Source of the DNA: Candidatus Gottesmanbacteria bacterium RIFCSPHIGHO2_01_FULL_40_15 | GTDB lineage: Bacteria; Patescibacteriota; Microgenomatia; 2-02-FULL-39-11 | DNA length: 64,000 bases | NCBI GenBank assembly: GCA_001779115.1 | Contig: MFJF01000015.1 | Span: 22,491-86,490, forward strand | Reading direction: 5' to 3' | Part shown: piece by piece, positions 1 to 64,000 of the stretch | Layout: each line of letters starts with the position of its first letter | How positions within the stretch are numbered: the first letter of the stretch is position 1 | The notes under the pieces: model-generated | Told to the model about the DNA's origin: nothing | Databases searched by the model: none | What the model saw: only the letters and a program-made list of their open reading frames with translations | Program-made: the position numbers and the translations under genes

Positions 1-1389
1 GAAGCAATATATATCCGATGGGCGCAGATAGGTTTGAATGACCCGGCTCACCGTTTTATTTCCCTGACCGACGGCAAACAGCCGCTTTTTACCTGGCTAA
101 TGTATCCGTTTCTTAGTATTTTTACTGATCCGCTTTTTGCCGGCCGGTTTGTTTCGGTTCTTTCCTCGATGCTCGCCGTTTCCGGAATTTACTTCCTGGC
201 CAAAGAATTATTTAACCGCAAAACAGCAGTATTTGCCTGTATTTTATATCTGATTTCACCCTTCGCCCTGCTCTATGACAGGCTGGCCCTAATGGACAGC
301 CTACTCTCGGCGCTTTTGGTTTGGTGCTTATATTTTACGGTTATGCTCACCAGATACAGCCGTCTCTATTTCAGTTTTATGCTGGGAATAACCGCCGGAT
401 TTGGACTCCTTACAAAATCATCAGCCGCTTTCGGTCTTTATCTTTTGCCATTCTCGCTTCTTCTTTTTAATTTTAGCGAAAAAAATAACTTAAATAAATT
501 ATTAAAATGGGCAGTTTTTTCTTTTTTGAGTATAATAATTGCTCAAATTATATATAATTTATTGAGATTATCGCCATATTTTTACATTATAGAACAAAAA
601 AATTATTCTTTCATCATGACGTTTGATGAATTTATAAAATCACCTTTGAGGATTTTTCTGCCTAATCTGAACGGTTTGACCGGATGGCTTTTTTCCTATT
701 TAACAATTCCTGTCGCTGTAATTACCATCATAAATCTGATTATTTCCATAATTAAAGTAAAAAGAATTATATTTTTACTATTTCTCTGGTTTATAATTCC
801 CTTTCTTGCTTTAGCGTTTTTGGGTAAAGTAATTTTCCCTCGTTTTATCCTGTTTATGACGATGCCCTTATTGATAATTGCGGCTGATTTTCTAAGCCGG
901 TTTTATTCATTCGCCAGGATTCGCATGAAATACGCTTATATAGTTATTTTGCTGATTTTAGCCCAATCGTTTTATATTTCACTTGTATTGATAGTAAAAC
1001 CGGTAAATGCCGATATACCGCTTAATGACAGAAACCAGTTCTTTGATGATTGGCCGTCGGGATTCGGAGTCAGGCAGGTAGTCGATTATATCGAAAACGA
1101 ATCCCGAAAAGGAAAAGTGGTATTGGGAACGGAGGGTACGTTCGGCCTGAATCCGGCCGCGTATGAAATATATCTCAAGTCCAATGACAACATCATTATA
1201 AAAGGATATTGGCCTGTAAAATCAGTGCCCGCTGAACTGAAAAACTATGCCCGCCTTTATCCTACATATCTTGTCTTTAAAGATACACAGGAATTTCCCG
1301 GTAACTGGCCTTTAAAACTGGTTGCCCGATACCGGCGCGGTTTAAAAAACACTTATTTGTATTTCTATCAGGTGATTCCTGAAGATTAA
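1..1389 (+). CDS. PMT_2/ArnT-like GT-C membrane glycosyltransferase, 5'-truncated (sixth B-family paralog). The frame is open to the window start; the ORF track begins at TTG 34.
   Basis: No stop in frame from nt 1. Polytopic hydrophobic protein whose TM-core and C-terminal region are collinear with the paralogs at 25085, 27551, 29205, 32797 and 34404. The N-terminal DE-loop is presumably upstream. Confidence 0.55.
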   Translation, partial: EAIYIRWAQIGLNDPAHRFISLTDGKQPLFTWLMYPFLSIFTDPLFAGRFVSVLSSMLAVSGIYFLAKELFNRKTAVFACILYLISPFALLYDRLALMDSLLSALLVWCLYFTVMLTRYSRLYFSFMLGITAGFGLLTKSSAAFGLYLLPFSLLLFNFSEKNNLNKLLKWAVFSFLSIIIAQIIYNLLRLSPYFYIIEQKNYSFIMTFDEFIKSPLRIFLPNLNGLTGWLFSYLTIPVAVITIINLIISIIKVKRIIFLLFLWFIIPFLALAFLGKVIFPRFILFMTMPLLIIAADFLSRFYSFARIRMKYAYIVILLILAQSFYISLVLIVKPVNADIPLNDRNQFFDDWPSGFGVRQVVDYIENESRKGKVVLGTEGTFGLNPAAYEIYLKSNDNIIIKGYWPVKSVPAELKNYARLYPTYLVFKDTQEFPGNWPLKLVARYRRGLKNTYLYFYQVIPED

Positions 1390-3038
1390 TGCGAAAATTA
1401 CCAGGTTTATATTTTTTTTTAACTCTGATTTTCCTGCTGATTATTTCTTTAGTTTATTCATGGCCTTTTTTCAAGCCGGGTCTGATTGTAACGGACGATG
1501 GTATTTGGTCGGTTGTGCGTCTTGCGGAAATGGTCAGAGAGTTAAAAGATTTCCAGATTCCTCCGCGCTGGGCCGGATACCTTAACCATGGATACGGTTA
1601 TCCTCTTTTTTCCTTTGCTTATCCCTTGCCTTATTATTTGGGTGCGTTTTTGAAATTTACGGGATTGTCCTATGTTTCTGCCGTAAAATTTTTATTTATC
1701 GGCAGCACGTTCCTTTCAGTGTTTTTCATGTATCTGTTGGGATCGACCTTAACCGGTCCCGGCGGAGGATTAACGGCAGCTCTTTTTTATTTGATAGCTC
1801 CTTACCGGTTAACCGATCTTTATGTCCGGGGTTCTTTAGGAGAATCAATCAGTTTCCTTTTTTTTCCGCTGATTTTTTACCTGACGGTTAAAATATTTAA
1901 AGAAAGTCCCGGTTTTAAGCCTATTTTTCTCAGTCTGTCCCTTTCCGCTTTGATGCTTTGCCATAATGTCATGGCTGTCCTTTTCATCCCTGTTTGGCTT
2001 TTTTTTGTATTTTTTCTTAATTTTTCCCGCTTCGGAAGGAAAGAAAATGATAAAAAGACATCACCGGTCATTAAATTTCTACCGGTGCAGTTTTTAAAGA
2101 TTTTATTTCTGTCACTCTCTTTGGCGGCATTTTTTATTCTTCCGGCTCTGATGGAAAAAAAATTCCTTGTACTGGATAAAATTCAGCTGGCCGCCAAAAG
2201 CCTCAATTTCATTTCACTCATCAATTTAGTCACCCGGCCGCAAAATACGGTCTATCCCTTTTTCAATTTGGGAATTCCGCAACTGACGGTTGCCGGTCTT
2301 TCTGTATTAGCGCTTTTCAGGATGAAAAAGGATCTTGATCACCGGAGCTTTATGATCTCTGTCCTGATAATTTTAGCCGCCCTTATTTTTCTCACCAATA
2401 ATATAAGTTCATTTTTCTGGCAGCTTCCGATTCTCAATTCAATTGATTTTCCCTGGCGGGTTATGGGTTTGGTCATTTTCATGTTGGCTTTATTAACCTC
2501 ATTTATCGGTTCAAACAGGAATTTATTGGCATTTGGTCTCCTTCTTGCCGGTATCGGCTTTTTCCGGAATCTTTCCCTTATTAATCCTGCCGGATACACT
2601 AAACAAAATGATGAATATTACCTGACTAACGATGCCACCACAACATCCAAAGACGAATTTATGCCTATTTGGGTGACTGATCCCCCAGGAAAAAGATTTT
2701 CGGAAAAAGTCTCATTACCGGAAAACGCTCTCATTTCCGATCTCGTCTACAATTCCAAAACAGTAAAATTTAACCTGCTGTCCCGACAGCCGGGTCGCCT
2801 GATAATAAATACAATTTACTTTCCCGGGTGGCAGGCCACTTTAAACGGAAAAAATACCGCAATTATATACAATAATCCCCAGGGACTGATCTCCCTGGAT
2901 TATCCTTCCGGGGCTTCACGGATTGAAGCGTTTTTTAAGGAAACCCCGTTAAGAAAGACAGCCGACGTCATAAGTTTGCTGGCCCTTATTTATATAATTT
3001 TCTCAATTATGAAAAGAGTTTTTAAATATGTCAGGTAA
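1389..3038 (+). CDS. YfhO-like GT-C family polytopic membrane protein (A-family paralog A1)
   Basis: N-terminal periplasmic-loop motif TDDGIW...RLAE...PPRWAGYLNHGYGYPLFSFAYPLPYYLG. More than 10 predicted TM segments. C-terminal soluble domain with YFPGWQATLNGK, as seen at the C-termini of YfhO-family proteins. The TAATG junction overlaps the previous gene. Confidence 0.6.
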   Translation: MRKLPGLYFFLTLIFLLIISLVYSWPFFKPGLIVTDDGIWSVVRLAEMVRELKDFQIPPRWAGYLNHGYGYPLFSFAYPLPYYLGAFLKFTGLSYVSAVKFLFIGSTFLSVFFMYLLGSTLTGPGGGLTAALFYLIAPYRLTDLYVRGSLGESISFLFFPLIFYLTVKIFKESPGFKPIFLSLSLSALMLCHNVMAVLFIPVWLFFVFFLNFSRFGRKENDKKTSPVIKFLPVQFLKILFLSLSLAAFFILPALMEKKFLVLDKIQLAAKSLNFISLINLVTRPQNTVYPFFNLGIPQLTVAGLSVLALFRMKKDLDHRSFMISVLIILAALIFLTNNISSFFWQLPILNSIDFPWRVMGLVIFMLALLTSFIGSNRNLLAFGLLLAGIGFFRNLSLINPAGYTKQNDEYYLTNDATTTSKDEFMPIWVTDPPGKRFSEKVSLPENALISDLVYNSKTVKFNLLSRQPGRLIINTIYFPGWQATLNGKNTAIIYNNPQGLISLDYPSGASRIEAFFKETPLRKTADVISLLALIYIIFSIMKRVFKYVR

Positions 3039-4749
3039 ACCGGTATCCATTCTGATGCTGATTACGGTATTGGTACTATCCTATTTTTCCGTCCGTCCGG
3101 TATTTATTAAAGGTTACTTTCCCGTGCATGACGATACTCAGCCGGCCAGGGTTTTAGTCATGTCGGAGCAGTTAAGAAAAGGCATCTTTCCTGTGAGGTT
3201 GGTTGACCGCCTCGGCTATGGATACGGTTATCCCTTATTTAATTTTTACGCACCGCTCCCGTATTATTTGGGCTCTTTATTTCATCTGGCCGGATTCTCT
3301 CTTATTTTTTCCGTAAAACTGATGTTTGCTTTTGGAGTGATATTGGCGGCAGTATTTATGTATCTTTTGGCGGTTGAAATCGCCGGGTCCTTCTTTGCTG
3401 CCGCAGCTGCCGTCTTTTATTTGTACGCTCCATACCATGCCGTCAATGTCTATGTCAGAGGTGCGGTCGGAGAGTACTATGCTTATGCATTCCTGCCGTT
3501 ATTGGGACTTGGAATATTGCGCGTAATAAAATCATCTGCCGGAAAATCCGACCACCGTATCCGTCCGGTGTTGCCACTGATACTTGGACTGGCCGGAATA
3601 CTGTTAAGTCATAATATTTTTGGTCTGGTTACTCTATATCTTTTGATCATTTTGATTCTGTATGGACTGTATCGCCAATTAAGAAAAAAAGGAGGCTGTC
3701 ATCTGATGCAAATTCTCATGAATATGGCTTTAGGAATCGGACTGTCCGCTTTTTTTATCCTGCCTGCTTTTTTGGAAAGCCACTTTACCCGTGTTGCCGG
3801 TCTTTCGGCGGGATCAAACAGTTACGATCTGCATTTTATCTCCTTGTTTCAGTTATGGGATTCTCCCTGGGGTTTCGGCGGTTCTGTTCCGGGCTTAAAC
3901 GACGGCATGTCTTTTAAGATCGGAAAACTGCACCTTTTAATAGCGGTTTTAGGGCTCATCCGTTTTATCTTTCTTGGTCCAAAAAACCCAAAATCAGCTG
4001 CTAAAAAATTTCTGGTTCCGGCTTCACTTTTTCTTTTTCTCCTTTCTGTCTTTTTTATGCTTCCCGTATCCTCTTTTTTGTATCGTTTGTTGCCGTATAT
4101 GAACTTTATCCAGTATCCGTGGCGTTTTTTGAATATCTCTCTTTTTGCCCTCAGCCTGGGTATAGCTCCGCTGTTTTATAATATGAAAAATAAATTTCAG
4201 GCAATATCTGCCTTTTTAATCATCTTCTCTATACAAGGCGTAAACCTGAAATATTTTAATCCGAGAACAGTTCATCCGTTTGATGAAGCCGATTATAAAA
4301 ATCCTGTTAATCTGAAGTTTACAATTTCCAGAATTTCTGACGAGTATTTGCCTCCCGGTATAAACATTCCCCAAACTGCCCGTGATCTTCCCGGTTCATC
4401 TCTGCCGGCAACTCCGGAAATGCCCGTTTATGAATTGACCGGTACGACCGTTTTTAAAAAATTCATGGTTGATAAAAAGGAAACGGGTCCGGTTGTCACC
4501 AAAATGGCATATTTCCCCGGTTGGCAGGCAAAAATTGACTCAAGTGCGGTAAGGGTTGTAAATAGAGAGGGTTTGATTGCTCTTCATGTTCCCGCCGGAA
4601 AGCATATTCTTGAATTGGAATTCAAAAATACGCCGGTAAGATTTACCGGTAACGCGATTTCCATTTCAAGTATTGTTCTGTTACTATATTTACTGTTGGT
4701 GCTGCCGATTAAATATATTTTATGCAAAGAGCCAGATCCGTCGAGGTAG
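3028..4749 (+). CDS. YfhO-like GT-C family polytopic membrane protein (A-family paralog A2)
   Basis: HDDTQP...RLGYGYGYPLFNFYAPLPYYLG motif, many TM segments, C-terminal YFPGWQAKIDSS domain. Paralogous to 1389..3038 and 39192..40847. Confidence 0.6.
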   Translation: MSGKPVSILMLITVLVLSYFSVRPVFIKGYFPVHDDTQPARVLVMSEQLRKGIFPVRLVDRLGYGYGYPLFNFYAPLPYYLGSLFHLAGFSLIFSVKLMFAFGVILAAVFMYLLAVEIAGSFFAAAAAVFYLYAPYHAVNVYVRGAVGEYYAYAFLPLLGLGILRVIKSSAGKSDHRIRPVLPLILGLAGILLSHNIFGLVTLYLLIILILYGLYRQLRKKGGCHLMQILMNMALGIGLSAFFILPAFLESHFTRVAGLSAGSNSYDLHFISLFQLWDSPWGFGGSVPGLNDGMSFKIGKLHLLIAVLGLIRFIFLGPKNPKSAAKKFLVPASLFLFLLSVFFMLPVSSFLYRLLPYMNFIQYPWRFLNISLFALSLGIAPLFYNMKNKFQAISAFLIIFSIQGVNLKYFNPRTVHPFDEADYKNPVNLKFTISRISDEYLPPGINIPQTARDLPGSSLPATPEMPVYELTGTTVFKKFMVDKKETGPVVTKMAYFPGWQAKIDSSAVRVVNREGLIALHVPAGKHILELEFKNTPVRFTGNAISISSIVLLLYLLLVLPIKYILCKEPDPSR

Positions 4750-5459
4750 TTATTCCTATCTATAATGAACAGGAGGAGCTTGCTGACAGTATTATCAAGC
4801 TCCGTTCGTTTTTAAAAAAGAATTTGAAAGACTTCAATTGGCATATTACCATTGCCGATAACGCTTCAACTGACGAAAGCCTTAATATTGCCAGAAAACT
4901 AAAATCCCGTTATACCGGTGTCGGTTTTATTCATCTGGATGAAAAAGGCCGGGGCCGGGCTGTTAAAAAAGCCTGGCAAACAAGCAGGGCTGATTTCTTA
5001 TCTTATATGGACGTAGATCTGTCTTCAGACCTCAGGTATTTCCGGACATTAATTACTGCACTGGTTGACGGATATGATATATCGATAGGCAACCGGCTTA
5101 TGAAAGGATCAATCGTTAAAAAACGCCCTTTGAAAAGGGAAGTTCTTTCAAGGGGATATAATATTCTGATAAAATTACTGTTTTTGGTTCATTTCAGTGA
5201 TGCACAATGCGGTTTTAAAGCTGTCAACCGGAAAGTAGCCGACCGCTTATTGCCGAATATTAAGGATAATGCCTGGTTTTTTGACAGTGAGCTCCTGATT
5301 ACCGGTGAAAAGGTCGGCTATAAAATATTCCAGGTACCGGTTTCCTGGACCGATAATCCCGGATCAACCGTCCGGGTTTTAAAAACAGTTTCGGGTGATT
5401 TGGCCGGTCTTTTACGGTTATTCCTGGATCGGCCTTGGCGCAAAATAAATAAAGTTTAA
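4722..5459 (+). CDS. GT2 polyprenyl-phosphate sugar synthase (Dpm1/GtrB/ArnC-like)
   Basis: VVIPIYNEQEEL...ADNASTDES...YMDVDLSSDL (GT-A DxD region). Size about 245 aa. Overlaps the end of A2. Confidence 0.7.
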   Translation: MQRARSVEVVIPIYNEQEELADSIIKLRSFLKKNLKDFNWHITIADNASTDESLNIARKLKSRYTGVGFIHLDEKGRGRAVKKAWQTSRADFLSYMDVDLSSDLRYFRTLITALVDGYDISIGNRLMKGSIVKKRPLKREVLSRGYNILIKLLFLVHFSDAQCGFKAVNRKVADRLLPNIKDNAWFFDSELLITGEKVGYKIFQVPVSWTDNPGSTVRVLKTVSGDLAGLLRLFLDRPWRKINKV

Positions 5460-5461: not shown

Positions 5462-6481
5462 ATGAAAAATATTTTCATTACGGGAGGAGCCGGTTTCATC
5501 GGGTCAAACCTGGCTGCCCATTTTATTAAAAAAGGAAAAAAAGTAACTGTTTTTGATAACCTTTCAAGGCAGGGAGGAAAAGCCAATTTGGACTGGCTGT
5601 CTTCTTTGGGTCCTTTCAAATTCACAAGAGGAGATATCAGGAATAAATCTGAACTTGAAAAGGCGGTTAGGGGGGCTGATGCAATACTCCATCTGGCTGG
5701 TCAGGTTGCCGTAACCACATCAGTTGACGATCCTGCCACAGACTTTGACATTAATGCTTTGGGTACCTTTAATCTCCTTGAAGCTGTCAGAACTTCCGGA
5801 AAAAAAATTCCAGTCATATTTTCATCAACTAATAAAGTTTACGGCGGAATGGAGAATATCAAAGTCATAGAAAAAAATGGCCAGTATATATATAAAGACT
5901 ATAAGTTCGGAATCGCCGAAACTAAAAACCTTGATTTCCATTCACCCTACGGCTGTTCTAAGGGGGCGGCCGATCAGTATATGCGGGATTATTACCGCAT
6001 CTATGATATTCCGACAGTTGTTTTCCGTCAATCCTGCATTTACGGTCCGCGTCAATTCGGTATTGAAGACCAGGGTTGGGTAGCCTGGTTTATTATCGCT
6101 GCTTTTTCCGGAAAAAAAATAACTGTTTACGGCGATGGTAAACAGGTCAGGGATGTGCTTTTTATTGATGATCTGGTTGGGCTTTTTGATATTACACTCG
6201 CAAACATAAATAAATCCGCCGGTAAAATATATAACGTCGGAGGCGGATTTACTAATATACTTTCAGTTTGGACAAAGTTCGGACCTATTTTGGAGGATCT
6301 TTTCGGGCATAAAATAAGAGTGAGTTTCAGCCGGTGGCGGCCCGGTGATCAGAAAGTTTATATTAGTGATATTAGACAGGTTAAAAAAGAGCTCGGTTGG
6401 CAACCCAAAGTCGGAGTTAAAGAGGGTATATCAAAATTATTTAAGTGGGTGGGCAGTAATCAGAATCTGTTCAAATCTTGA
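5462..6481 (+). CDS. CDP-paratose/tyvelose 2-epimerase-like SDR (NAD-dependent sugar-nucleotide epimerase)
   Basis: TGGAGFIGSNL Rossmann motif. VFDNLSRQGGKANLDWL, STNKVYGG and HSPYGCSKGAADQYMRDY (YxxxK) closely resemble the RfbE/Tyv family. Confidence 0.7.
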   Translation: MKNIFITGGAGFIGSNLAAHFIKKGKKVTVFDNLSRQGGKANLDWLSSLGPFKFTRGDIRNKSELEKAVRGADAILHLAGQVAVTTSVDDPATDFDINALGTFNLLEAVRTSGKKIPVIFSSTNKVYGGMENIKVIEKNGQYIYKDYKFGIAETKNLDFHSPYGCSKGAADQYMRDYYRIYDIPTVVFRQSCIYGPRQFGIEDQGWVAWFIIAAFSGKKITVYGDGKQVRDVLFIDDLVGLFDITLANINKSAGKIYNVGGGFTNILSVWTKFGPILEDLFGHKIRVSFSRWRPGDQKVYISDIRQVKKELGWQPKVGVKEGISKLFKWVGSNQNLFKS

Positions 6482-6485
6482 AGAT

Positions 6486-7610
6486 ATGCCAAAATACAAC
6501 AACATTTTAGTCACCGGCGGAGCCGGTTTTATCGGTTCGCATTTGGTCGACGCTTTAATTACTAAAGGTTTTAAAGTCCGGGTTCTTGATAATCTCGATA
6601 AACAGATACACCCCTCTGGCAAGCTTCCTGCATACTTTAACAGGAAAGCTCAATTCATTAAAGGCGATGTAGTTAAAACTGAAGATTGGCGTAAAGCGTT
6701 AAACAAAATTGATTGTGTTTTTCATTTTGCTTCAGCTGTCGGCGTCGGCCAGAGTATGTATGAGATTGAAAAATACGTGCGCGTCAACTGTCTTGGGACG
6801 GCGCTTTTTCTTGACATGTTGGCCAATAAGAGTCACGGCGTTAGAAAAATTATTGTGGCCGCTTCCATGAGTTCTTACGGTGAAGGAAGCTACATTTGCA
6901 GTAAATGCGGTATTGTCAGACCGGATCTTCGTCCCCAATCTCAGCTGAAAAAAAGAGACTGGCAGGTATATTGTCCTGAATGTGGCATTTGGGTAACGCC
7001 TGTTCCGACAAAAGAAGAAGCCAAGCAGAATTCCAATTCTATTTATGCGATTACCAAAAAAAACCAGGAAGACATGATTCTGACAACCGGTAAAACTTAC
7101 GGTATTCCCTCTGTTGCCCTCCGTTTTTTTAATGTTTACGGTCCCAGACAATCACTTTCCAATCCCTATAACGGTGTGGCTGCCATATTCCTCAGCCGCA
7201 TCAAAAATAATAAACCGCCTGTAATAAATGAAGACGGTTTTCAGACCAGGGATTTTATCCATATTACTGATGTTGTTTCAGCCTGTATTGCCGCCATGGA
7301 AAAATCCTCAGGGGATTACGAAGTATTTAATGTAGGCAGCGGTAAACCTGTTACTATATTGGAAGTAGCCGGGGTTATAAGCAGATTATTAAAAAGTTCT
7401 ATTAAACCTGACATAACGGGTAAAGCAAGAAAACTTGATGTCCGTCATTGCTATGCCGATCTGAAAAAAATTAAAAAACTGCTCGGTTGGTCTCCCAAAA
7501 TTAAACTCTTGGAAGGATTTGCCGGACTGATTGAATGGGGTAAATATGAGAAAGCGCGGGATAAGGTGGATTATGCTCTTGGTGAATTGGAAAAAAGAGG
7601 ATTAAGATGA
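6486..7610 (+). CDS. NAD-dependent epimerase/dehydratase (SDR) with a Zn-ribbon insertion
   Basis: ILVTGGAGFIGSHLVD, and a catalytic Ser region (ASMSSYGEG) followed by a CSKCG...CPECG insertion before YAITK. Start taken at ATG 6486; the ORF track's TTG 6345 would overlap the upstream gene by 137 nt. Confidence 0.7.
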   Translation: MPKYNNILVTGGAGFIGSHLVDALITKGFKVRVLDNLDKQIHPSGKLPAYFNRKAQFIKGDVVKTEDWRKALNKIDCVFHFASAVGVGQSMYEIEKYVRVNCLGTALFLDMLANKSHGVRKIIVAASMSSYGEGSYICSKCGIVRPDLRPQSQLKKRDWQVYCPECGIWVTPVPTKEEAKQNSNSIYAITKKNQEDMILTTGKTYGIPSVALRFFNVYGPRQSLSNPYNGVAAIFLSRIKNNKPPVINEDGFQTRDFIHITDVVSACIAAMEKSSGDYEVFNVGSGKPVTILEVAGVISRLLKSSIKPDITGKARKLDVRHCYADLKKIKKLLGWSPKIKLLEGFAGLIEWGKYEKARDKVDYALGELEKRGLR

Positions 7611-8350
7611 CAGTTTCATTCATAATTCCCTTCCATAATGAAGGAAAAAACTGCCAACCGATGGTAGAACGTGTAGCGGCTTTTGCTGAAAAAAATGATA
7701 TTGATTATGAAATAATTCCGGTGGATGACAGAAGTAATGATAAAACACGGCAAATCCTTAAGAATTTATGCGCGAAAAACAGGCGAATAAAACCCGTTAT
7801 ACGAAAAGAGGACAGCGTGGAAAAGGGAAATACTATGGGCAGTGCCCTTATGGAAGGAACGGTAAAATCAATCGGCCGTTTTATAATTTGGACTATGGGC
7901 GATATGGCCGACAATACTGCAACTTATAAAGATATACTGGATAAACTTAACGGCAATTATGATATGGTTTTTGGTTCCCGTTATATGCCCGGCGGTTCAC
8001 GGGGTAATCTTGATCCTTTGAAAGCGACTTTAAGCTCAACAGGCACTTTCCTGGCCCGGATTCTGTTTGGAATTCCCGTTCATGATATAACTAATGCCTT
8101 CCGGGGTTTTAAAAAAGAAGTATTTCAGAAAGTAAGCCTGGAAGAGACCGGATTCGGCATTTCACCTGAATTTGCCATTAAAGCCCATATGGCCGGATTT
8201 AAGCTCGGGGAAGTTCCGACAACATACGCCAACAGGGTTGAAGGAATCTCCAATTTTAAACTATATAAAATGACCAGGGGATACCTTTTATTATACTTCA
8301 AACTCCTTCTAAAATACCGGCTTCACAAAAAAAAGCTGGTCCTTCACTGA
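7607..8350 (+). CDS. GT2 polyprenyl-phosphate sugar synthase (Dpm1/GtrB-like)
   Basis: SFIIPFHNEG...IPVDDRSNDKT and a C-terminal RVEGISNFK motif typical of Dpm1/GtrB enzymes. ATGA overlap with the upstream gene. Confidence 0.7.
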   Translation: MTVSFIIPFHNEGKNCQPMVERVAAFAEKNDIDYEIIPVDDRSNDKTRQILKNLCAKNRRIKPVIRKEDSVEKGNTMGSALMEGTVKSIGRFIIWTMGDMADNTATYKDILDKLNGNYDMVFGSRYMPGGSRGNLDPLKATLSSTGTFLARILFGIPVHDITNAFRGFKKEVFQKVSLEETGFGISPEFAIKAHMAGFKLGEVPTTYANRVEGISNFKLYKMTRGYLLLYFKLLLKYRLHKKKLVLH

Positions 8351-17468: not shown

Positions 17469-17480
17469 TTGTTTGACTAA

Positions 17481-21590: not shown

Positions 21591-21592
21591 AT

Positions 21593-45674: not shown

Positions 45675-45693
45675 TTACTTTTAAACCAAATTT

Positions 45694-47822: not shown

Positions 47823-47837
47823 AATTTTTTTAATTTT

Positions 47838-53573: not shown

Positions 53574-53575
53574 AA

Positions 53576-54292: not shown

Positions 54293-54301
54293 AATAAATA
54301 T

Positions 54302-57411: not shown

Positions 57412-57428
57412 TATATTTACCATTAAAA

Positions 57429-57457
57429 TTGACTTCATATGAAATTTTTATTATCAT
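57429..57457 (+). promoter_or_regulatory. candidate sigma70-like promoter TTGACT-N17-TATCAT
   Basis: TTGACT at 57429-57434 and TATCAT at 57452-57457, in the 96-nt AT-rich gap before ATG 57508. Confidence 0.35.
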
Positions 57458-57507
57458 TTTCTGCAATTATTTGTATATTTTTCTTCTTTTAATACTTTTA
57501 TGTCTTT

Positions 57508-58524
57508 ATGATTAAGATTGGTGTCATCGGCAGCGGTTATTGGGGTAAACATCACTTGAGAATATTTTCACAATTACCTTGTGAGCTTATCGGAGTAGCT
57601 GATATCAATCCGGAACATGCAAAATTGGCAGAATATTTTAAAATTCCTTTTTATAAAGATTACAGAAAATTACTTAAAAAGGCGGACGCGGTAACTGTTG
57701 TCACACCTCCGGCTACCCATTACGAAATCGCCAAAACCGCACTTTTAAGGAAAAAACATGTATTGCTGGAAAAACCTTTTGTCTTAAAACTTTCTCAAGC
57801 TCAAAGACTGTACAAATTAGCGGAAAAAAATAAAGTTCATCTCATGGCCGGTCATACTTTTCTTTATAATCCGGCAGTCAGATTAATCAGGCGGATGTTA
57901 ACTGAAAATAAATTAGGTAGGATTTATTACCTGACAATGGAATGGATGAATCTGGGAATAATCAGAAGTGATGTAAACGCCTTATGGAATTTCGCTCCTC
58001 ACCCTTTTTCCATCCTGAATTATCTTTTTGAAAAATTACCGGTAAAAGTTTCTTTCAGCGGACTGTCATTTATTCAGAATGGTATTGAAGATTTTGTATC
58101 AGGCAGTCTCTTTTATGAAAATGGAATTGTTGCGCACCTGGTTTTGTCCTGGCTTCATCCGGTAAAAATCAGGCAGATTACTTTGGTTGGCAGTAAAAAA
58201 CTAGTCAGATTTGACGATGTTAATAATGAGTCACCGGTTGAAATTTTTGATAAAGGCATCACCCCTGAAGAATTCTTAAAATACCAATCCTGGGATAATT
58301 TTGCCGAGTTTAAGGCCAAAAAACGATACGGCCTGCTGGAAATTCCGGAGGTGGATAAAATTGAGCCTCTCAAAGAAGAACTGAGGGAATTTATCAATGT
58401 TTCTGAAGGAAAAGTTAAATTGCTTTCAGATCAATTCACTGCAGTTAGTACAATTGCTTTGTTGGAAGCTGCCCAAAAATCAATGATGAAGAAAGGAAAA
58501 ATAATAAGTGTCTCCGGACATTAA
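57508..58524 (+). CDS. Gfo/Idh/MocA-family NAD(P)-dependent oxidoreductase (sugar dehydrogenase, WbpB-like)
   Basis: IKIGVIGSGYWGKHHL...LLEKPF is the Gfo/Idh/MocA N-terminal signature. Confidence 0.7.
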   Translation: MIKIGVIGSGYWGKHHLRIFSQLPCELIGVADINPEHAKLAEYFKIPFYKDYRKLLKKADAVTVVTPPATHYEIAKTALLRKKHVLLEKPFVLKLSQAQRLYKLAEKNKVHLMAGHTFLYNPAVRLIRRMLTENKLGRIYYLTMEWMNLGIIRSDVNALWNFAPHPFSILNYLFEKLPVKVSFSGLSFIQNGIEDFVSGSLFYENGIVAHLVLSWLHPVKIRQITLVGSKKLVRFDDVNNESPVEIFDKGITPEEFLKYQSWDNFAEFKAKKRYGLLEIPEVDKIEPLKEELREFINVSEGKVKLLSDQFTAVSTIALLEAAQKSMMKKGKIISVSGH

Positions 58525-59482
58525 TATTCTTTTAACCGGTGCCGGTACCCAGACTTTTGCCAATGTAATTAATCCGTTAAAGGATTATTATCGCAATAGA
58601 GTCAAATTGGTTGCCTGTGACATGGATCCGATGGCTTACGGATTATATTTAGCCGATAAATCTTATATTATTCCTCCGGCAGTAAATAGTAATTTTATCA
58701 AAAGAATTGTTGAAATTTGCCGGTTGGAATCGGTTAAAATTATTCTGCCGTTATTGTCGCTGGATATGCTTCCCATATCAAAACACAAAAAAGAGTTTGC
58801 CGATATGGGAGTATCTGCGCCAATTTCCGATTATAAATCGATTAAGATCTGTTCGGATAAAAAATTAACTTATGATTTTTTCCGCCATCACAATATACCG
58901 ACTCCGGCAACTTACCTTCCCGATGAGTTACCCGGGAAATTAGATTTTCCGGTAATTGTTAAACCTCGTCATCTAAGCGGAAGCAAATTTTTTCAAAAAG
59001 TAAACTCCAGAGATGAACTTCCGAAAATAACCGGTTGTGTACCCGATCCGATTATCCAATCTTTTTTGAACGGCCAGGAATATACCGTTGATATTTTGGC
59101 TGATCTGGAAAGCCGTCCTGTCGGAATAGTACCGAGAAGCCGATTGAAAATATCGGCTGGAAAATCAGTGGTGGGTAAAACTGAAGATTTGCCGGTTTTA
59201 AGAAAATTAATTGAATATGTAATTAAAAAAATTCCCCTTATCGGACCCGCCAATATTCAATGCTTTAAAATTAACGGCAATTTTTTGTTCACCGAAGTGA
59301 ATCCCAGATTTTCGGCAGGCGGACTGCCGTTATCTGTTTCCGCCGGAATGAATTCACCGGTACAGCTGGTAAAAATAGCATTGGGCCAAACCGTTCCAAA
59401 ATTAACAAAAAATTACAATAATCTATATCTGTTCAGATATTATACCGAAGTGATTGTTACGGAGAAAAAAATAATCAAATGA
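58508..59482 (+). CDS. ATP-grasp domain protein
   Basis: VIVKPRHLSGSKFFQKV...QEYTVDIL...FTEVNPRF is an ATP-grasp fold signature. GTG start. Confidence 0.65.
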   Translation: MSPDINILLTGAGTQTFANVINPLKDYYRNRVKLVACDMDPMAYGLYLADKSYIIPPAVNSNFIKRIVEICRLESVKIILPLLSLDMLPISKHKKEFADMGVSAPISDYKSIKICSDKKLTYDFFRHHNIPTPATYLPDELPGKLDFPVIVKPRHLSGSKFFQKVNSRDELPKITGCVPDPIIQSFLNGQEYTVDILADLESRPVGIVPRSRLKISAGKSVVGKTEDLPVLRKLIEYVIKKIPLIGPANIQCFKINGNFLFTEVNPRFSAGGLPLSVSAGMNSPVQLVKIALGQTVPKLTKNYNNLYLFRYYTEVIVTEKKIIK

Positions 59483-60489
59483 CCAGACCGTTTTCCGGAT
59501 TGAAAATACTTGTTACCGGCGGAGCCGGTTTTATCGGTTCGCATATTGTTGATTCTTTGGTTTCCCAAGGAGCAAAAGTAACGGTTTTGGATAATTTTTC
59601 ATTCGGACGCATCGATAATTTAAGCACAGTCAGAAGTAAAATTAAAATTATTAAAGCCGATATCAGGGATTATGGCAAACTGGTAAAAGCCATGGAGGGG
59701 ATCGATATGGTTTCACATCATGCCGCACAATTGGAAATAATCAGGGCAAATAATGATCCCTGGATCGATCTTCAAATCAATTTGCTCGGTACCATAAATG
59801 TTTTAAAAGCAAGCCGCATCAAGCGCGTTAAAAAAATTATTAACGCTTCTTCAGCTTGTGTCTATGGTCAGCCTAAATATAAAAAGCAGGATGAAAATCA
59901 CCCTGTAGAGCCGAATTGGGAATATGGGATATCAAAACTCGCTGCTGAAAAGTATTGCCGCATATTTACAACGTCGTTTGGCATTCCCTCGGTCTCTCTC
60001 CGATACTCAATCGTATATGGCCCACGGGAATGGTACCGGCGTGTTCTGACGATTTTTATCAAAAGAACCATACAGGGAAAGCCTCTTGTTGTGTTTGGCG
60101 ACGGTAAATTATACCGTGATTATGTATACGTGGCAGATGTGGTCAAGGCCCACAACTTATGCCTGATTAAAAAAGCGGCAGACGGAGAAGTTATTAATAT
60201 CGGATCAGGAAATTTAATTACCATTTTGAAATTAGCAAGACTGGTAAATATTGTATCAGGAAAACAATTGCCGATTATCCATGAGCAGGTTTCTGAAGGA
60301 GGGGAAAGCCGGCAAGTTCCCGGTAAGAAAAGAAATCCTCAGGATTTAAAAGGAATGTGCCTGGACAACAAAAAAGCTAAAAAATTATTGGATTGGCAAT
60401 CGGAAGTCACTTTGCCGGACGGAATTCATTTTGAATTGGATTGGGCAATGAAAAATCTCGACCAGTGGCGTAAAATTAAATACTCTTAA
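59479..60489 (+). CDS. NAD-dependent epimerase/dehydratase (SDR)
   Basis: ILVTGGAGFIGSHIVD, YGISKLAAE (YxxxK). Confidence 0.7.
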   Translation: MTRPFSGLKILVTGGAGFIGSHIVDSLVSQGAKVTVLDNFSFGRIDNLSTVRSKIKIIKADIRDYGKLVKAMEGIDMVSHHAAQLEIIRANNDPWIDLQINLLGTINVLKASRIKRVKKIINASSACVYGQPKYKKQDENHPVEPNWEYGISKLAAEKYCRIFTTSFGIPSVSLRYSIVYGPREWYRRVLTIFIKRTIQGKPLVVFGDGKLYRDYVYVADVVKAHNLCLIKKAADGEVINIGSGNLITILKLARLVNIVSGKQLPIIHEQVSEGGESRQVPGKKRNPQDLKGMCLDNKKAKKLLDWQSEVTLPDGIHFELDWAMKNLDQWRKIKYS

Positions 60490-61193
60490 TGATTTTGAAA
60501 CTTGACCGGATTGCCGGAAAATATTCCGAAGAAAAAGGATTTGAAAAGGTTATAACTTCATACAAAATCCGGGAAATTATTAAGTTTATCAAAGGCCCTG
60601 ATGTGCTTGATTTGGGATGCGGTGAAGGCATAATCACCCGGGCAATCGCTTCGCTGAATTTTCATGTGGTTGCCGTAGACGGTTCGAAACTCAAACTTCA
60701 AAAAGCCAAAAAGAATATTTCAAATAATAATGTAAAATTTATCCATTCTTTTTTTGAAAATTTTGATCCGCCGGTAAAATTCAATTCCATTGTTATGAGC
60801 AACATTCTGGAACATGTCAATAAGCCCGATAAATTACTGACCCGGGCTAAGTCGTGGCTCAAGCATGACGGCAGAATCATTGCCACAGTCCCTAATGCCG
60901 ATAGTTTAAACAGGTTGTTGGGTTTAAAAATGGGAGTAATTTCCGGTAAAAAGGAATTGACTGCTGAAGATAAACATAAAGGTCATCGGCGGGTTTATGA
61001 TATGAAATCATTGAAAACTGATTTTAAAAGCGCCGGTTTTAAGGTCAAATTTATGGGAGGTATTTTTCTTAAACCGTTACCCCATAAATATATGGAAAAA
61101 ATAGGCGATGAAAATATTTATGAAGGACTTTATAAACTTCGTCTGGAATACCCGAACTTATGTTCTTCGTTAATCGCGGTTGCTTTAAAATGA
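60489..61193 (+). CDS. class I SAM-dependent methyltransferase
   Basis: VLDLGCGEGIIT motif I. TAATG overlap. Confidence 0.7.
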   Translation: MILKLDRIAGKYSEEKGFEKVITSYKIREIIKFIKGPDVLDLGCGEGIITRAIASLNFHVVAVDGSKLKLQKAKKNISNNNVKFIHSFFENFDPPVKFNSIVMSNILEHVNKPDKLLTRAKSWLKHDGRIIATVPNADSLNRLLGLKMGVISGKKELTAEDKHKGHRRVYDMKSLKTDFKSAGFKVKFMGGIFLKPLPHKYMEKIGDENIYEGLYKLRLEYPNLCSSLIAVALK

Positions 61194-61753
61194 ACCGGGT
61201 AAAAGCTGTTTTTTTTGATTTTGACGGTACTATTTTTACATTGAAAATGGATTGGTTAAATCTGAAAAACAATATTATTTCCGAATTCGGCCTTAAAATT
61301 TCTGCAGAATCAAATTTTATGAATAATATATACGATCTGAAAAATGACAAAAAAAAGTCGCAGATTTTAGCCAGGATCACCTTTGAAGAATTGAAAGGAG
61401 TTGAAAACGGGAAACCTGATCACGGTTCTATAGATTTTATAAATTTCTGCCGTAAAAAAAAATATAAATTAGGTGTTGTTTCCAGAAACAGCCGTAAAGC
61501 CATATTATCCGGCTTGGGTAAAATGCGGCTGTCTGAAATACCGGTAATTGGCAGGGAAGATGTTCGAAAACTGAAACCTCATCCGGAAGGATTAATTAAA
61601 ATGATGAGTATGCTTTCAGTATATCGGAATGAGTGTATTTATATCGGTAATGATGCGGTTTCGGACAGGCGGTTTGCTGAAAATGCGAAAGTTAAATTCA
61701 TCCACCTGAAGAGCTGGAATGAAATTAAAATCAACTGCAGATCGTGGAACTGA
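61190..61753 (+). CDS. HAD-superfamily hydrolase or phosphatase
   Basis: VFFDFDGTIF (DxDGT motif I), 187 aa. ATGA overlap. Confidence 0.65.
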   Translation: MNRVKAVFFDFDGTIFTLKMDWLNLKNNIISEFGLKISAESNFMNNIYDLKNDKKKSQILARITFEELKGVENGKPDHGSIDFINFCRKKKYKLGVVSRNSRKAILSGLGKMRLSEIPVIGREDVRKLKPHPEGLIKMMSMLSVYRNECIYIGNDAVSDRRFAENAKVKFIHLKSWNEIKINCRSWN

Positions 61754-64000
61754 TCCTGACTATATTAATACCGGTTGTTTTATCGCTTTCAGGTTTACCG
61801 TTCCTTTTGAAAAACAGGTATTTCCGGGAATTCCCGGGTATTCTTCTGTTGGCAATTTCCGTCCAATTAGGCCTATCCCTTGTGATATTTCCGATGGTAA
61901 TTTGGGGTTTAATTTTTGCATCGGGATTTGTTGTGATTGCCAGAATAATTTTCATATTATCTATCCTTCTTTCCGCAATTGGTCTTTATACATTCCTGCG
62001 GAATAAAAAATTTTCCATAAATCTAAAAGAAACGATTAAACTTGTTAAAAATCCTGTTATTGCCGTAACTTTTATATTCTTATTTATCTACTTCTTATTG
62101 TTTGCGTTAAAACCCGTAATTGACTCGGATATAATCAGCAGTTATCTGCCGCTGGGCAGAAGTATCATCAGATCTGACAGTATTCCCCGGCTTAATTATT
62201 ATGATAATAAACCGTTTGTTATACCCCCCGTTGCCGGTCCTGTTTTATTCTCATTTTATTATGCACTTTCAAAAAATATAACCGGTGAAATTTTCCGGTA
62301 TATAAACCTGCCGTTTTTCTTTTCATTCCTGATTTTTTCTTATTATATATTCAGAAAATTTCTGAACAAATCATATTCTTTATTGGCTCTGGTAGTACTT
62401 TTAACAACACCCCTGTTGGAAGATCTTATTTTCAGTGCCGGTCTGTACCCGGATTTCATTTTTGCCTCACTGTGCCTTTTTTCCTTTTGGCTCATGTACT
62501 CTCTGGCAAATACTCCAAAAGCGACAGGACAAAATAGAATATCATTTTTTATCTGTATGTTGATGGGAATTTCAATTGCGCTGGCTATGCTTTTTAAATA
62601 TCAGGCAATTGTACTTTACGTCATTGCTGCCGCTTTTATATTGTCTCAGAATTTAACCGGTTTGTTGAGAAGTCTGGTTTACCTTCTGGATTTATCACCC
62701 CTCTTTTTAATGGAGTATTTCTCAATTAATCCTTATAATAAATTCCCGTTATTTGTTGAATTGGTATTTATCCTGCTGATTACAGTCGCCCTTTTTTTAC
62801 TTCATAAAAACATTAAACCTTTTAAAAAAAGTAATTTATTGAACTTGTACATTTTTTTTATTTTCAGCCTTCCGGGTTTTATTTTTATTGTCAGAAATTT
62901 TTTGGTATTTAATGGTCTTAATGAAACCTCATTAATCTATAACTGGGCTGTAAGTATGGAAAAAACAGTCGGAGAAGAAATTGAACAGGGAAATCTGTAT
63001 TCAATTTTTTCAATCTTTTTAGCGCCCGCTTTATCGGCCTACTGGTTAATTCCGAAAATAACCGGATTATTCATTATGATAAAAAAGAACCGGAAGCATT
63101 TTCTCAATTTGTTTATTATATTTACCTGGACAGGCTATTGGGTTATTGGAATGAGTGCGGTTACTGTCAGATGGTTAATGCCGATTCTGCCTTTTCTGGT
63201 CTTAAGTATAATGGTTGGACTTAAACATTTTTTTAAAAAAATAAATTATTTTACTCAAATAATTTTTACGGGCATTCTTTTTATGATACTTTCATCCAAA
63301 TTCATATTTATTAATTTGGGATCATTGCTTTCAGGGACTGAGAATTTGCGTCAAATAGCCGGGCAGCAGCAAAGCGGCAGCTCCGTTATAAGAAACGGTA
63401 TTGATGGATTTTTAAAAACAATTATTTTTACCCTGACCGCCCGTACTGAATCGGAAAAAGATATATTACAGTTGTTAATCTTGTCTGTTATTTTTTTTAT
63501 TCTGATAAAAAAAATTGCAGATCTATTTGGTTCTGCCAAATCATTAAAAGTCATTTTATTAACAGTTTTTATCATTTACGGCAGTGTGTTTATGTGGGTG
63601 TCAAACGGCAATTTACTGAATTTTACAGAACGTGAAGCTGATCTTGTATTTGACTATTGGGGTCAACAGAGGTATTTGATTCCATATTTGAAAAATCATT
63701 CGGAAAAAGATGATATAGTCTTATCCTACAATATACAAACCGGACTTTCATATTATACCAACATGCGGGTTTTTAATTTGCAGTATGGTGCCGGATTACA
63801 AATCTTTTATCCGATTTTCAATGAAACCGATCCGGAAAAAATCCACCTGTTTTATAAAAAAAACGGATTTAGGTATTTTGTTCTCCTGGATTATCAGGAA
63901 TCGAAAAAACATTGGACCAACTTAAGAAAAAAAACAAAAATTTTTGATATTCTCGATGATAAGCGTTACAGTACTCTTGTACTTAGTCCCAATAATAAAT
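61744..64000 (+). CDS. polytopic membrane protein of more than 750 aa, possibly another GT-C-like enzyme. 3' end is beyond the window. Not in the ORF track.
   Basis: I hand-translated frame 1 from the TAA at 61726-61728 to nt 64000 and found no stop. The product is a hydrophobic multi-TM protein. The likely start is GTG 61744, overlapping the HAD stop. Confidence 0.6.
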   Translation, partial: MELILTILIPVVLSLSGLPFLLKNRYFREFPGILLLAISVQLGLSLVIFPMVIWGLIFASGFVVIARIIFILSILLSAIGLYTFLRNKKFSINLKETIKLVKNPVIAVTFIFLFIYFLLFALKPVIDSDIISSYLPLGRSIIRSDSIPRLNYYDNKPFVIPPVAGPVLFSFYYALSKNITGEIFRYINLPFFFSFLIFSYYIFRKFLNKSYSLLALVVLLTTPLLEDLIFSAGLYPDFIFASLCLFSFWLMYSLANTPKATGQNRISFFICMLMGISIALAMLFKYQAIVLYVIAAAFILSQNLTGLLRSLVYLLDLSPLFLMEYFSINPYNKFPLFVELVFILLITVALFLLHKNIKPFKKSNLLNLYIFFIFSLPGFIFIVRNFLVFNGLNETSLIYNWAVSMEKTVGEEIEQGNLYSIFSIFLAPALSAYWLIPKITGLFIMIKKNRKHFLNLFIIFTWTGYWVIGMSAVTVRWLMPILPFLVLSIMVGLKHFFKKINYFTQIIFTGILFMILSSKFIFINLGSLLSGTENLRQIAGQQQSGSSVIRNGIDGFLKTIIFTLTARTESEKDILQLLILSVIFFILIKKIADLFGSAKSLKVILLTVFIIYGSVFMWVSNGNLLNFTEREADLVFDYWGQQRYLIPYLKNHSEKDDIVLSYNIQTGLSYYTNMRVFNLQYGAGLQIFYPIFNETDPEKIHLFYKKNGFRYFVLLDYQESKKHWTNLRKKTKIFDILDDKRYSTLVLSPNNK

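Follow-up and report, generated by a model that had tools for sequence, protein, structure and literature searches.

The 64,000-nucleotide stretch analyzed here (the window; contig MFJF01000015.1, positions 22,491 to 86,490) comes from Candidatus Gottesmanbacteria bacterium RIFCSPHIGHO2_01_FULL_40_15, a member of the candidate phyla radiation (CPR), and carries a cluster of glycosylation genes dominated by polytopic membrane proteins of the GT-C glycosyltransferase type. It holds 54 genes, numbered g01 to g53 with g36b between g36 and g37 (52 long open reading frames (ORFs), a short one of 118 aa, and one that is cut by the 3′ end of the window), and ~99% of the window is coding. The plus strand carries 50 of the 54 genes (two-sided binomial p ~4e-11), with g08, which encodes a tRNA-guanine transglycosylase, and the three-gene operon g39-g41 as the minus-strand exceptions; coordinates given below are window positions on the plus strand unless the minus strand is named. 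By the gene-caller starts, 30 of the 49 same-strand junctions overlap and 8 further junctions span at most 10 nt. Every ORF was translated and scanned with Pfam and NCBIfam, transmembrane (TM) segments were counted by rough hydropathy, and scans of the window for tRNA genes and Rfam families returned no match. The inventory consists of 17 GT-C-type polytopic proteins, which account for 43% of the window bases, five glycosyltransferase family 2 (GT2) enzymes of the DPMS/ArnC/GtrB type (DPMS, dolichyl-phosphate mannose synthase), six other GT2s, four GT4s, one Wzx flippase, and ~16 sugar-tailoring enzymes. A model that had seen only the letters and their ORFs (the original prediction) had anticipated much of this composition. 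Its count of at least 15 GT-C-like proteins agrees with the 17 found, which include the weakly assigned g26 and the probably noncatalytic g23, and its single Wzx, many sugar-nucleotide tailoring enzymes, and overlapping stops and starts are likewise present. The class of its roughly six Dpm1-like synthases is borne out by profile comparison with the number in the window corrected to five, its roughly eight further GT2/GT4 enzymes exist and number ten, and its single orientation applies to all but the four minus-strand genes.

The GT-C assignments were graded by Pfam matches above or near cut-off, paralogy, AlphaFold2 (AF2) fold, profile comparison with hhalign, and UniProt name. The 17 polytopic proteins have 6-12 TM segments each, where the GT-C superfamily is marked by 7-13 TM helices and by conserved acidic residues in an extracytoplasmic first loop. 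PMT_2 or PMT models score above their Pfam cut-offs in g01, g22, g24, g25, g27, g28, and g53, and counting YfhO (PF09586) as well there are eight window proteins above cut-off, with g32 and g35 just below. The center of the set is a tandem array that we call family A, which begins with g22 (25085-26758) and continues with g24 (27551-29200), g25 (29205-30830), g27 (32797-34407), and g28 (34404-35999). Its members are 27-38% identical and share an invariant WDE in the first loop. Both g24 (39.5 bits, E 6e-10) and g27 (48.7 bits, 1e-12) match PF02366 PMT above its cut-off of 22.7 bits, whereas g22, g25, and g28 match PMT_2 only, and g22 in addition has a weak NCBIfam match to the archaeal Agl23. 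The sole match of the family A profile among PDB sequences is ArnT (E = 0.012), and the same searches with the g10 and family B profiles (both described below) gave no match. Across 287 full-length family A paralogs from 80 related loci, D33 is kept in 283, E34 in 282, and R144 in 285; because the Asp-Glu motif is retained in ~98% of them, these paralogs are in all likelihood catalytically active and not duplicates in decay. The first gene of the window, g01 (1-1389), is also a PMT_2-type GT-C (E = 2.4e-17) with its N-terminus cut by the window start (full length 491 aa), and its homolog profile links to family A at 100% and to the g42 family at 98.6% in hhalign. Single-sequence hhalign runs with g26, g35, g42, and g53 were uninformative, and profiles built from homologs were needed.

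A second group, family B, comprises g02 (1389-3038), g03 (3028-4749), and g32 (within 38464-40847, which g31 and g32 occupy together). These YfhO/PTPS_related-like proteins, with ~9 TM segments in g02 and g03, are 28-31% identical to one another and have an invariant first-loop Asp within an HDG motif. PTPS_related matches are weak in g02 and g03 and stronger in their orthologs from a relative locus (L092), and g32 reaches 28.0 bits against the YfhO cut-off of 28.5. The 763-aa g18 (19299-21590) is a YfhO-family member at 59.7 bits against the same cut-off, and its profile links to family B at 96.8%. The fold of a third type was examined directly: the AF2 model of g10 (9981-11384, 467 aa) has a pLDDT of 92.4 and a GT-C_A fold, with Foldseek matches to PglB, STT3, ArnT, Pmt4, AftB, and DPY19 at probability 1.0 and a TMq of ~0.5, PglB and STT3 being the best. 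Among its 103 homologs, several of which match PF13231, the first-loop sequence FFQDDWF is invariant, including D34 and D35; first-loop residues are likewise invariant in family A (WDE) and family B (HDG). An hhalign value of 95.9% connects g10 with family A. Next to it, g11 (11381-12529) is a short PMT_2-like GT-C of 382 aa, named 'RgtA/B/C/D-like' in UniProt and linked at 95.5% to family A and 95.7% to the g42 family. Both g10 and g11 lie near the Wzx gene and were considered as a Wzy polymerase or a ligase; this was rejected on the GT-C fold of g10 and the hhalign links.

The remaining polytopic proteins span a range of confidence. The product of g53 (61744-64000), a 763-aa protein that runs off the window end, passes PMT_2 at 27.9 bits against 26.1. 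Its open frame of 752 codons occupies the 61.8-64 kb stretch, which has a GC content of 0.33 and had no listed ORF; noncoding DNA was considered for this stretch and rejected on the reading frame, and a repeat search there found chance-level AT-rich repeats only. The protein encoded by g42 (49549-51453, 634 aa) has 10 TM segments and a soluble C-terminal domain of ~250 aa. It is rare, with five strong relatives among 1.84 billion representative proteins, and its weak relatives belong to PMT_2, PMT, or GT22; the g42-family profile aligns with family A at 94.2%, pairing YYFDM with WDE. The 379-aa g35 (42690-43829) is PIG-V/GT76-like, with a Mannosyl_trans2 match (E = 1.1e-4) at 22.1 bits against a cut-off of 22.4 that recurs, equally weak, in the ortholog of a further relative locus (L095). 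It carries the sequence NFDGVHYLTISRYGY past TM2 and showed no hhalign link to the window GT-C profiles. The weakest assignment is g26 (30830-32800), a 656-aa candidate with 12 TM segments and no Pfam or NCBIfam match. Its UniProt name 'RgtA/B/C/D-like', an hhalign value of 77% to the g10 family over 365 columns, and a position kept in relatives make it a probable GT-C. A special case is g23 (26733-27554; 273 aa, ~6 TM), which lacks TM1 and the catalytic WDE loop and resembles the middle and C-terminal membrane parts of family A (hhalign 95.6% to family A positions 87-157; similar to the C-terminal part of g27). Orthologs with 27-39% identity follow the g22 ortholog in other Gottesmanbacteria, and this shared position marks g23 as a conserved gene and not a recent pseudogene; its product may be a noncatalytic subunit. 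Pfam, AF2 with Foldseek, and hhalign thus assign the polytopic proteins to GT-C glycosyltransferases rather than transporters, as originally predicted, and as such we infer that they use polyprenyl-phosphate-linked donors.

Enzymes that would make such donors are encoded beside them. The five DPMS/ArnC/GtrB-type GT2s are g04 (4722-5459, its start overlapping the end of g03), g07 (7607-8350, also recognized by Pfam), g31 (within 38464-40847 and followed by g32), g36 (43852-44535), and g40 (minus strand, within 46641-49501, in the g39-g41 operon). Their joint profile matches the Pyrococcus furiosus Dol-P-Man synthase 5mlz at E = 6.5e-41, ArnC at 1e-19, and GtrB at 7e-15. Profile positions 2-223 align with residues 23-247 of 5mlz and so span the catalytic and juxtamembrane regions, whereas generic GT2s align with the synthase profile over the first ~90-120 residues only. 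AglJ is the top NCBIfam model for four of the five, and for g36 it comes second to PpgS, a polyprenyl-phosphate (amino)sugar synthase that g36 matches over its full length (E = 5.7e-41, 140 bits against an equivalog cut-off of 370). Further NCBIfam matches include the Dol-P hexose transferase and ArnC models; because all of these scores fall below the equivalog cut-offs, sugar specificity cannot be assigned. Four of the five synthase genes are close to a GT-C gene: g03 and g04 overlap, g31/g32 and g35/g36 are adjacent, and g40 is separated from g42 by one gene, g41, on diverging strands. The fifth, g07, lies behind two short-chain dehydrogenase/reductase (SDR) genes, with g03, four genes upstream, as the nearest GT-C gene.

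The most complete of these groupings involves g36b (44537-44893), a gene for a small membrane protein of 118 aa with a DUF2304 domain (E = 3.9e-19). It was overlooked in the original prediction and begins 2 nt past the g36 stop, in what had appeared to be a 339-nt gap between g36 and g37; a DUF2304 gene occupies the same position in L095. The DUF2304 proteins GacJ and Rv3632 bind and stimulate the synthases GacI and PpgS, respectively (Rush et al., 10.1101/180810). By analogy, g36b is a putative activator partner of g36, and g35, g36, and g36b together with a Wzx-family flippase would reproduce the GacL/GacI/GacJ/GacK scheme. The arrangement as a whole, with DPMS-type GT2s, a GT-C close to four of the five, a DUF2304 partner, and ~98% motif retention, directly supports the original proposal that lipid-phosphate-monosaccharide donors feed extracytoplasmic GT-Cs.

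Exact protein matches assign the window to metagenome-assembled genomes of Candidatus Gottesmanbacteria from the Rifle aquifer, for example ENA scaffold_138 (187 kb), where its counterpart lies at ~54.7-118.7 kb; near-identical contigs such as MFJP01000004.1 contain it as well. The cluster continues beyond both ends of the window, as read over 8.6 kb upstream and 6.5 kb downstream. The upstream flank holds four SDR-type genes and a UDP-glucose dehydrogenase gene, a GT2-GtrA fusion, a PMT_2 GT-C, another DPMS-type GT2, and, just upstream of the window, an MptA_B-family GT-C. Downstream are the remainder of g53, a DegT gene, a DUF2142 GT-C, a PMT_2 GT-C, a second DegT gene, and a second MOP-family flippase. 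In all, at least 79 kb encode 21 GT-C-like proteins, 7 DPMS-type synthases, and 2 MOP flippases. Since single-contig Gottesmanbacteria assemblies measure 1.0-1.2 Mb, the cluster would amount to ~7% of the genome.

What this region lacks is as characteristic as what it holds. In the 79 kb formed by the 54 window ORFs and the flanks, which is the scope to which the absence of an initiating enzyme applies, Pfam gave no match to WecA/MraY (Glycos_transf_4, PF00953) or WbaP (Bac_transf, PF02397), to Wzy_C/O-ag_pol_Wzy, O-antigen ligase, or Wzz, or to ABC_tran/ABC2_membrane as in a Wzm/Wzt-type exporter. The originally predicted absence of these components therefore holds for the window and the flanks read, as does the view that the composition is unlike a canonical O-antigen or capsule locus, in that 43% of the bases encode GT-Cs and no phosphoglycosyltransferase (PGT), Wzy, or Wzz/PCP accompanies them. 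Wzx/Wzy loci do share with this one a Wzx gene (here g12, 12490-13935, 14 TM, Polysacc_synt_3 E = 2.3e-46) and co-oriented nucleotide-sugar and cytoplasmic GT2/GT4 genes, ten of the latter kind being present. The locus could thus be an ordinary Wzx/Wzy system with its PGT encoded elsewhere in the genome, beyond the 79 kb searched, and with an unassigned polytopic protein acting as a divergent Wzy or ligase; g26, which has no family match and a 77% hhalign link to a GT-C profile, would be the candidate. We consider this very improbable, given that no Wzy, Wzz, or PGT model matches in the 79 kb, that g10, which except for g11 is the polytopic protein closest to Wzx, folds as a GT-C_A protein with neither Wzy nor WaaL among the 50 matches listed, and that a canonical Wzy pathway has no use for 17 GT-Cs and five lipid-phosphate-sugar synthases.

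Conservation in relatives was assessed by scanning the family A alignment over one genome per GTDB species, which returned >540 relatives, and examining the best 80 loci. These 80 all appear to derive from CPR of the Microgenomates type (Gottesman-, Curtiss-, Levy-, and Woesebacteria and the 'Patescibacteria group'), and every one of them contains several GT-C-like ORFs. Full 10-kb flanks were available for 54 loci, and 52 of these contain 6-11 GT-C-like ORFs, among them 2-8 copies of family A and, as a rule, one YfhO-like gene; a g18-like ORF occurs in most related loci. Gene order is conserved to a striking extent: g01-g07, g09-g19, and g22-g29 keep their order in at least eight other loci from several Gottesmanbacteria species at 27-68% protein identity, and copy number in these syntenic loci varies only inside the family A array. 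In L095, from a further organism, the order g29-g38 is kept, including the DUF2304 gene, and a g42 homolog follows with g39-g41 missing. Far from being a singular oddity, the locus is shared in syntenic form across the lineage, in Gottesmanbacteria as in other CPR of the Microgenomates type.

The distal part behaves differently. The GC content is ~0.40-0.42 before ~49.5 kb and 0.35-0.385 beyond it, falling to 0.33 in g53. With its lower GC, the very rare g42, and the g39-g41 module that a syntenic relative lacks, the region from ~49.5 to 64 kb probably varies more than the rest and is specific to the strain or species, and we read the whole as a conserved core (g01-g29) with a more variable distal part (g39-g53). 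The same observations can be read another way, namely that independent three-component systems and small glycan loci with different envelope targets (peptidoglycan, a teichoic-acid-like polymer, lipids, proteins) merely lie side by side, kept together by co-regulation or genome streamlining only. In line with such a mosaic are the two MOP flippases in 79 kb, the embedded genes g08, g20, and g21, which are absent from syntenic relatives, the minus-strand operon missing from L095, the drop in GC, the rarity of g42, and the varying number of family A copies among the species examined. The strict order of g01-g19 and g22-g29 at 27-68% identity and the frequent translational coupling fit an integrated core better, and we regard a mosaic as rather unlikely.

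The reading that we favor, at a probability of roughly 0.55, is that a large number of polyprenyl-phosphate-sugar/GT-C modules act outside the membrane, where they decorate an envelope glycan or build it. It starts from what the analysis shows directly, namely the families and folds to which the proteins belong, which genes are neighbors, and the conservation of gene order and of motifs; the donors, their flipping, the order of reactions, and the acceptor are what we propose on that footing. SDR, pyridoxal phosphate (PLP), flavin, amidotransferase, and methyltransferase enzymes would tailor nucleotide sugars in the cytoplasm, where the GT2s and GT4s would assemble a lipid-linked primer or core oligosaccharide for export by a Wzx-type flippase. 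In parallel, the seven DPMS/ArnC/GtrB/PpgS-type GT2s, one with its GacJ-like DUF2304 partner, would each load one sugar onto polyprenyl monophosphate, and these donors would be flipped across the membrane by a MOP protein, the GtrA domain encoded upstream, or another flippase. Outside the membrane ~21 GT-Cs would then transfer the sugars, with several GT-Cs per donor as in the assembly of mycobacterial lipomannan (LM), lipoarabinomannan (LAM), and arabinogalactan (AG). Each GT-C would probably form one linkage, and together they would build or heavily branch a surface glycan. At least five GT-C subfamilies would take part: the PMT_2 tandem array, the YfhO/PTPS-like proteins, the g10 type, the PIG-V-like protein, and the MptA/B- and DUF2142-like proteins.

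As the acceptor of these reactions we favor an envelope glycopolymer or lipoglycan. Relatives in the YfhO, MptA/B, PIG-V, and DUF2142 families act on lipid or glycan acceptors, and such an acceptor is preferred for that reason and because of g13 (13928-15673), which encodes a membrane-anchored extracytoplasmic protein with a secreted hydrolase/deacetylase fold of the polysaccharide-processing type. This protein has no Pfam match. Its AF2 model (pLDDT 86.6) combines a glycoside-hydrolase/deacetylase barrel with a beta-sandwich domain, and Foldseek places it closest to 3lm3, a 'glycoside hydrolase/deacetylase' (E = 1.4e-16), followed by CE4/peptidoglycan deacetylases, the GH38 N-domain, ArnD, and GH57. 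The gene is kept beside the Wzx gene in other species. The g13 family is restricted to Microgenomates-type CPR, with 72 homologs, a few matching DUF3863 and some of ~1000 aa with extra domains.

The main acceptors could instead be proteins, with PMT-like GT-Cs O-glycosylating S-layer, pilin, or secreted proteins and other GT-Cs extending the glycans, much as in actinobacterial and fungal PMT pathways or in archaeal AglS-type additions. The PF02366 matches of g24 and g27, which share the DE loop motif of PMTs, point in this direction, as do the weak resemblance of g22 to Agl23, the frequent top rank of AglJ, an enzyme of S-layer N-glycosylation, for the synthases, and the position of the oligosaccharyltransferases PglB and STT3 as best fold matches of g10. 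Three of the cytoplasmic GT2s, the paralogous g14 (15670-16575), g16 (17481-18248), and g33 (40840-41619), add to this: among solved proteins their profile is closest to GmaR, which transfers O-GlcNAc to flagellin (1.9e-31), and to SunS and ThuS, which S-glycosylate peptides, and it reaches only 9e-8 with DPMS; this may hint at protein or peptide substrates. A study of Saccharibacteria pili also predicts O-glycosylation of pilin, although it calls glycosylation there 'unexplored'. These matches are sub-equivalog or generic to GT-C_A, however, the only PDB sequence match of family A is a lipid A enzyme, and no candidate glycosylation target protein is encoded in the 79 kb. No window ORF has a Pfam MIR domain, which eukaryotic PMTs carry in loop 5 and which bacterial PMTs are not known to have. 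Nor does any window ORF match the AglB/STT3 models, the STT3-type WWDxG motif not having been looked for. The YfhO, MptA/B, PIG-V, and DUF2142 families are known from lipid and glycan acceptors. We consider proteins as the main acceptors unlikely but a serious alternative.

Several observations weigh against an envelope glycan built by polyprenyl-phosphate-sugar/GT-C modules. None of the five synthases has a TM segment and their association with the membrane is assumed. Human DPM1 and Ppm1 of Mycobacterium smegmatis are precedents for soluble enzymes of this kind; only g36 among the five has a DUF2304 partner, and it is an upstream paralog that is fused to GtrA_DPMS_TM. The window has no GtrA/SMR-type flippase and a single Wzx for five synthases, with g12, the second MOP gene downstream, and the GtrA domain upstream as the flippase candidates in the whole region of at least 79 kb. 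Furthermore, g26 and g35 are weakly tied to GT-C, g23 is without its catalytic loop, and all SDR and PLP enzymes score below the NCBIfam equivalog cut-offs. The PF02366 matches and the GmaR- and SunS-like GT2s count here too, and the cluster may serve several products and not one.

Comparison with characterized systems shows where the locus follows known logic. Three-component systems include GtrA/GtrB/Gtr* of Shigella and Salmonella, CsbB/GtcA/YfhO of Bacillus and Listeria, and PPPRS/MATE/GT136 of C. youngae (Kelly et al. 2024, PMC11127046). They share with the present cluster a GT2-type polyprenyl-phosphate synthase beside a GT-C, a YfhO member (g18), and the use of donors outside the membrane, but they are single three-gene add-ons to a separate polymer, whereas at least seven synthases and ~21 GT-Cs dominate here. 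The synthases of the window also end without the C-terminal TM helices present in GtrB and ArnC, and in place of a GtrA/SMR-type flippase gene there is only the GT2-GtrA fusion upstream. The PpgS-Rv3632 pair of M. tuberculosis works with a GT-C to modify arabinogalactan with galactosamine (Rush et al., 10.1101/180810). Like this pair and the GacI-GacJ-GacK-GacL system of Streptococcus pyogenes, g36 has a DUF2304 gene directly downstream and a GT-C gene directly upstream, with a Wzx in the cluster; the differences are that g36 scores below the PpgS equivalog cut-off and that g35 is PIG-V-like and not GacL- or Rv3779-like.

Mycobacterial and corynebacterial LM/LAM/arabinogalactan assembly (Ppm1, DPA, PimE, MptA/B/C, Emb, Aft) offers a parallel with many GT-Cs, few donors, and a branched polymer made outside; a soluble synthase of the Ppm1 type is found there, and a member of the MptA_B family is encoded immediately before the window. 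In mycobacteria the GT-C genes are dispersed across 4.4 Mb, whereas those described here form one locus in a lineage with single-contig assemblies of ~1.0-1.2 Mb, with orthology at the superfamily level only and no DPPR/DprE genes seen. The archaeal Agl pathway (AglJ/AglD, the AglR flippase, AglS, Agl23) offers AglJ as the top model for four of the five synthases, the weak link between g22 and Agl23, and monophosphate-linked carriers, and a DPMS-type initiation would explain the missing WecA/WbaP. Here, in contrast, the host is a bacterium, the scores are far below the cut-offs, and no AglB/STT3 model matches even though g10 folds like PglB/STT3. Finally, g39-g42 recall the Arn system (ArnB/ArnC/ArnA/ArnT) in that a DegT-type PLP enzyme (g39), an SDR (g41), an ArnC-type GT2 (g40), and a GT-C (g42) could tailor, load, and transfer a sugar. 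An Arn-like 4-amino-4-deoxy-arabinose (Ara4N) module was considered on this basis and rejected: g39 is RfbH-like (220 bits, against 90 bits for ArnB), g41 is Fcl-like and not an ArnA decarboxylase, and g39-g41 are absent from L095. Formyltransferase, ArnD, and ArnE/F genes are lacking as well, and CPR bacteria are not known to have lipid A.

All of the components belong to known families, and the three-component, GacIJKL, Arn, and mycobacterial paradigms explain their logic. Many of the proteins already appear in database records as 'glycosyltransferase family 39' or 'RgtA/B/C/D-like', and taken one by one the annotations therefore hold no novelty. What is new is the density (43% of 64 kb, and 21 GT-C-like genes in one locus), the setting in a CPR lineage with ultra-small genomes, and the strict synteny across species together with arrays in all 80 related loci sampled. 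A literature search found no description of GT-C clusters in CPR, which does not prove that none has been published, and a 2024 review of Patescibacteria does not mention glycans. A bolder version of our reading, which we put forward tentatively as somewhat doubtful, is that Gottesmanbacteria, and more widely Microgenomates-type CPR, build a major, lineage-defining envelope glycan almost wholly outside the membrane, with polyprenyl-monophosphate donors feeding at least 20 GT-Cs and with DPMS/AglJ-type initiation instead of WecA/WbaP. If so, a monoderm, ultra-small bacterium would combine features of mycobacterial LAM/AG assembly with those of archaeal or ER-lumenal glycosylation, and the glycan could be its principal interface with hosts and phages. 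CPR/Patescibacteria make up a large share of bacterial diversity and their surface glycans are essentially unstudied; if an organism of ~1 Mb devotes ~7% of its genome to one syntenic GT-C cluster, the cluster's product is probably central to the envelope, host attachment, or phage resistance. The cluster is also a compact natural library of divergent GT-Cs (at least five subfamilies) and lipid-phosphate-sugar synthases, in which g35, g36, and g36b form one complete GacI/J/L-like module open to heterologous study, and its lineage-wide conservation provides clear targets for metatranscriptomics, glycomics, and electron cryotomography of enrichments.

The remaining genes are mostly sugar-tailoring enzymes and cytoplasmic glycosyltransferases. 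The tailoring set comprises seven SDRs, a DegT/RfbH-like enzyme, a PRK07208 flavoprotein, an AsnB-type amidotransferase, a GFO/IDH/MocA oxidoreductase, an ATP-grasp protein, two methyltransferases, a HAD phosphatase, and a cupin. NCBIfam gave no SDR, PLP enzyme, or GT2 a name at equivalog level, and the tailoring enzymes match no particular sugar pathway on this evidence. Two SDR dehydratases/epimerases, g05 (within 5462-7610) and g06 (6486-7610), match Epimerase/GDP_Man_Dehyd and the RmlB/GalE-like NCBIfam models below equivalog cut-offs. The domain of g06 is split by an insert of ~40 residues, with a weak Zn_Ribbon_TF match at residues 178-203 of the long ORF, and the split-domain pattern was also recorded for orthologs. 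The cupin gene g09 (9587-9988; Cupin_2 E = 1.4e-16), possibly for a sugar isomerase or epimerase, keeps its position in L092. Apart from the GmaR/SunS-like group, the GT2s g15 (within 15670-19312; rhamnosyltransferase-like by NCBIfam), g19 (21587-22417; cytoplasmic, Glycos_transf_2 E = 7e-24), and g37 are generic; g37 and the Fcl-like SDR gene g38 occupy 44874-46629. GT4s are encoded by g17 (within 15670-19312), g34 (within 40840-42686), g44, and g47. The SDR epimerase g29 and the UDP-galactopyranose-mutase-like FAD flavoprotein g30 (PRK07208, 439.8 bits against 389) lie within 36025-38432. On the minus strand, within 46641-49501, g39 (DegT/RfbH-like PLP enzyme) and g41 (Fcl-like SDR) flank g40 in the operon that diverges from g42. 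Within 51484-61753, g43-g47 encode an RmlD-like reductase, a GT4, a methyltransferase, the AsnB-type amidotransferase, and a GT4, and g48-g52 the GFO/IDH/MocA oxidoreductase, the ATP-grasp protein, an SDR, a methyltransferase, and the HAD phosphatase.

Three genes of housekeeping type are embedded among these, namely g08 (minus strand, 8360-9526; tRNA-guanine transglycosylase by Pfam), g20 (22672-23877; transaldolase-like, 401-411 aa), and g21 (23874-25037; a HisC/CobD-like class I/II aminotransferase). None occurs in the syntenic loci of other species, and they are local insertions. The largest same-strand gap, between g19 and g20, is mostly filled by a 65-aa ORF (22414-22611) with two hydrophobic segments and no Pfam match. 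In the databases, dozens of GTDB-representative metagenome-assembled genomes (binchicken, SRP co-assemblies) bear the title 'uncultured Gammaproteobacteria bacterium' and one is labeled Pacearchaeota; all contain Microgenomates-type GT-C arrays syntenic with those of Gottesmanbacteria, and these titles look wrong. At the downstream edge of the cluster, the JGI contig Ga0075761_101 is 99.9% identical to the window strain over 832 bp of the second flippase gene, past which the two sequences have nothing in common; it has a truncated 229-aa flippase ORF, a 327-aa ORF, rpsO, pnp, and other housekeeping genes. Either the strains differ in structure at this edge of the cluster or the assembly is chimeric.

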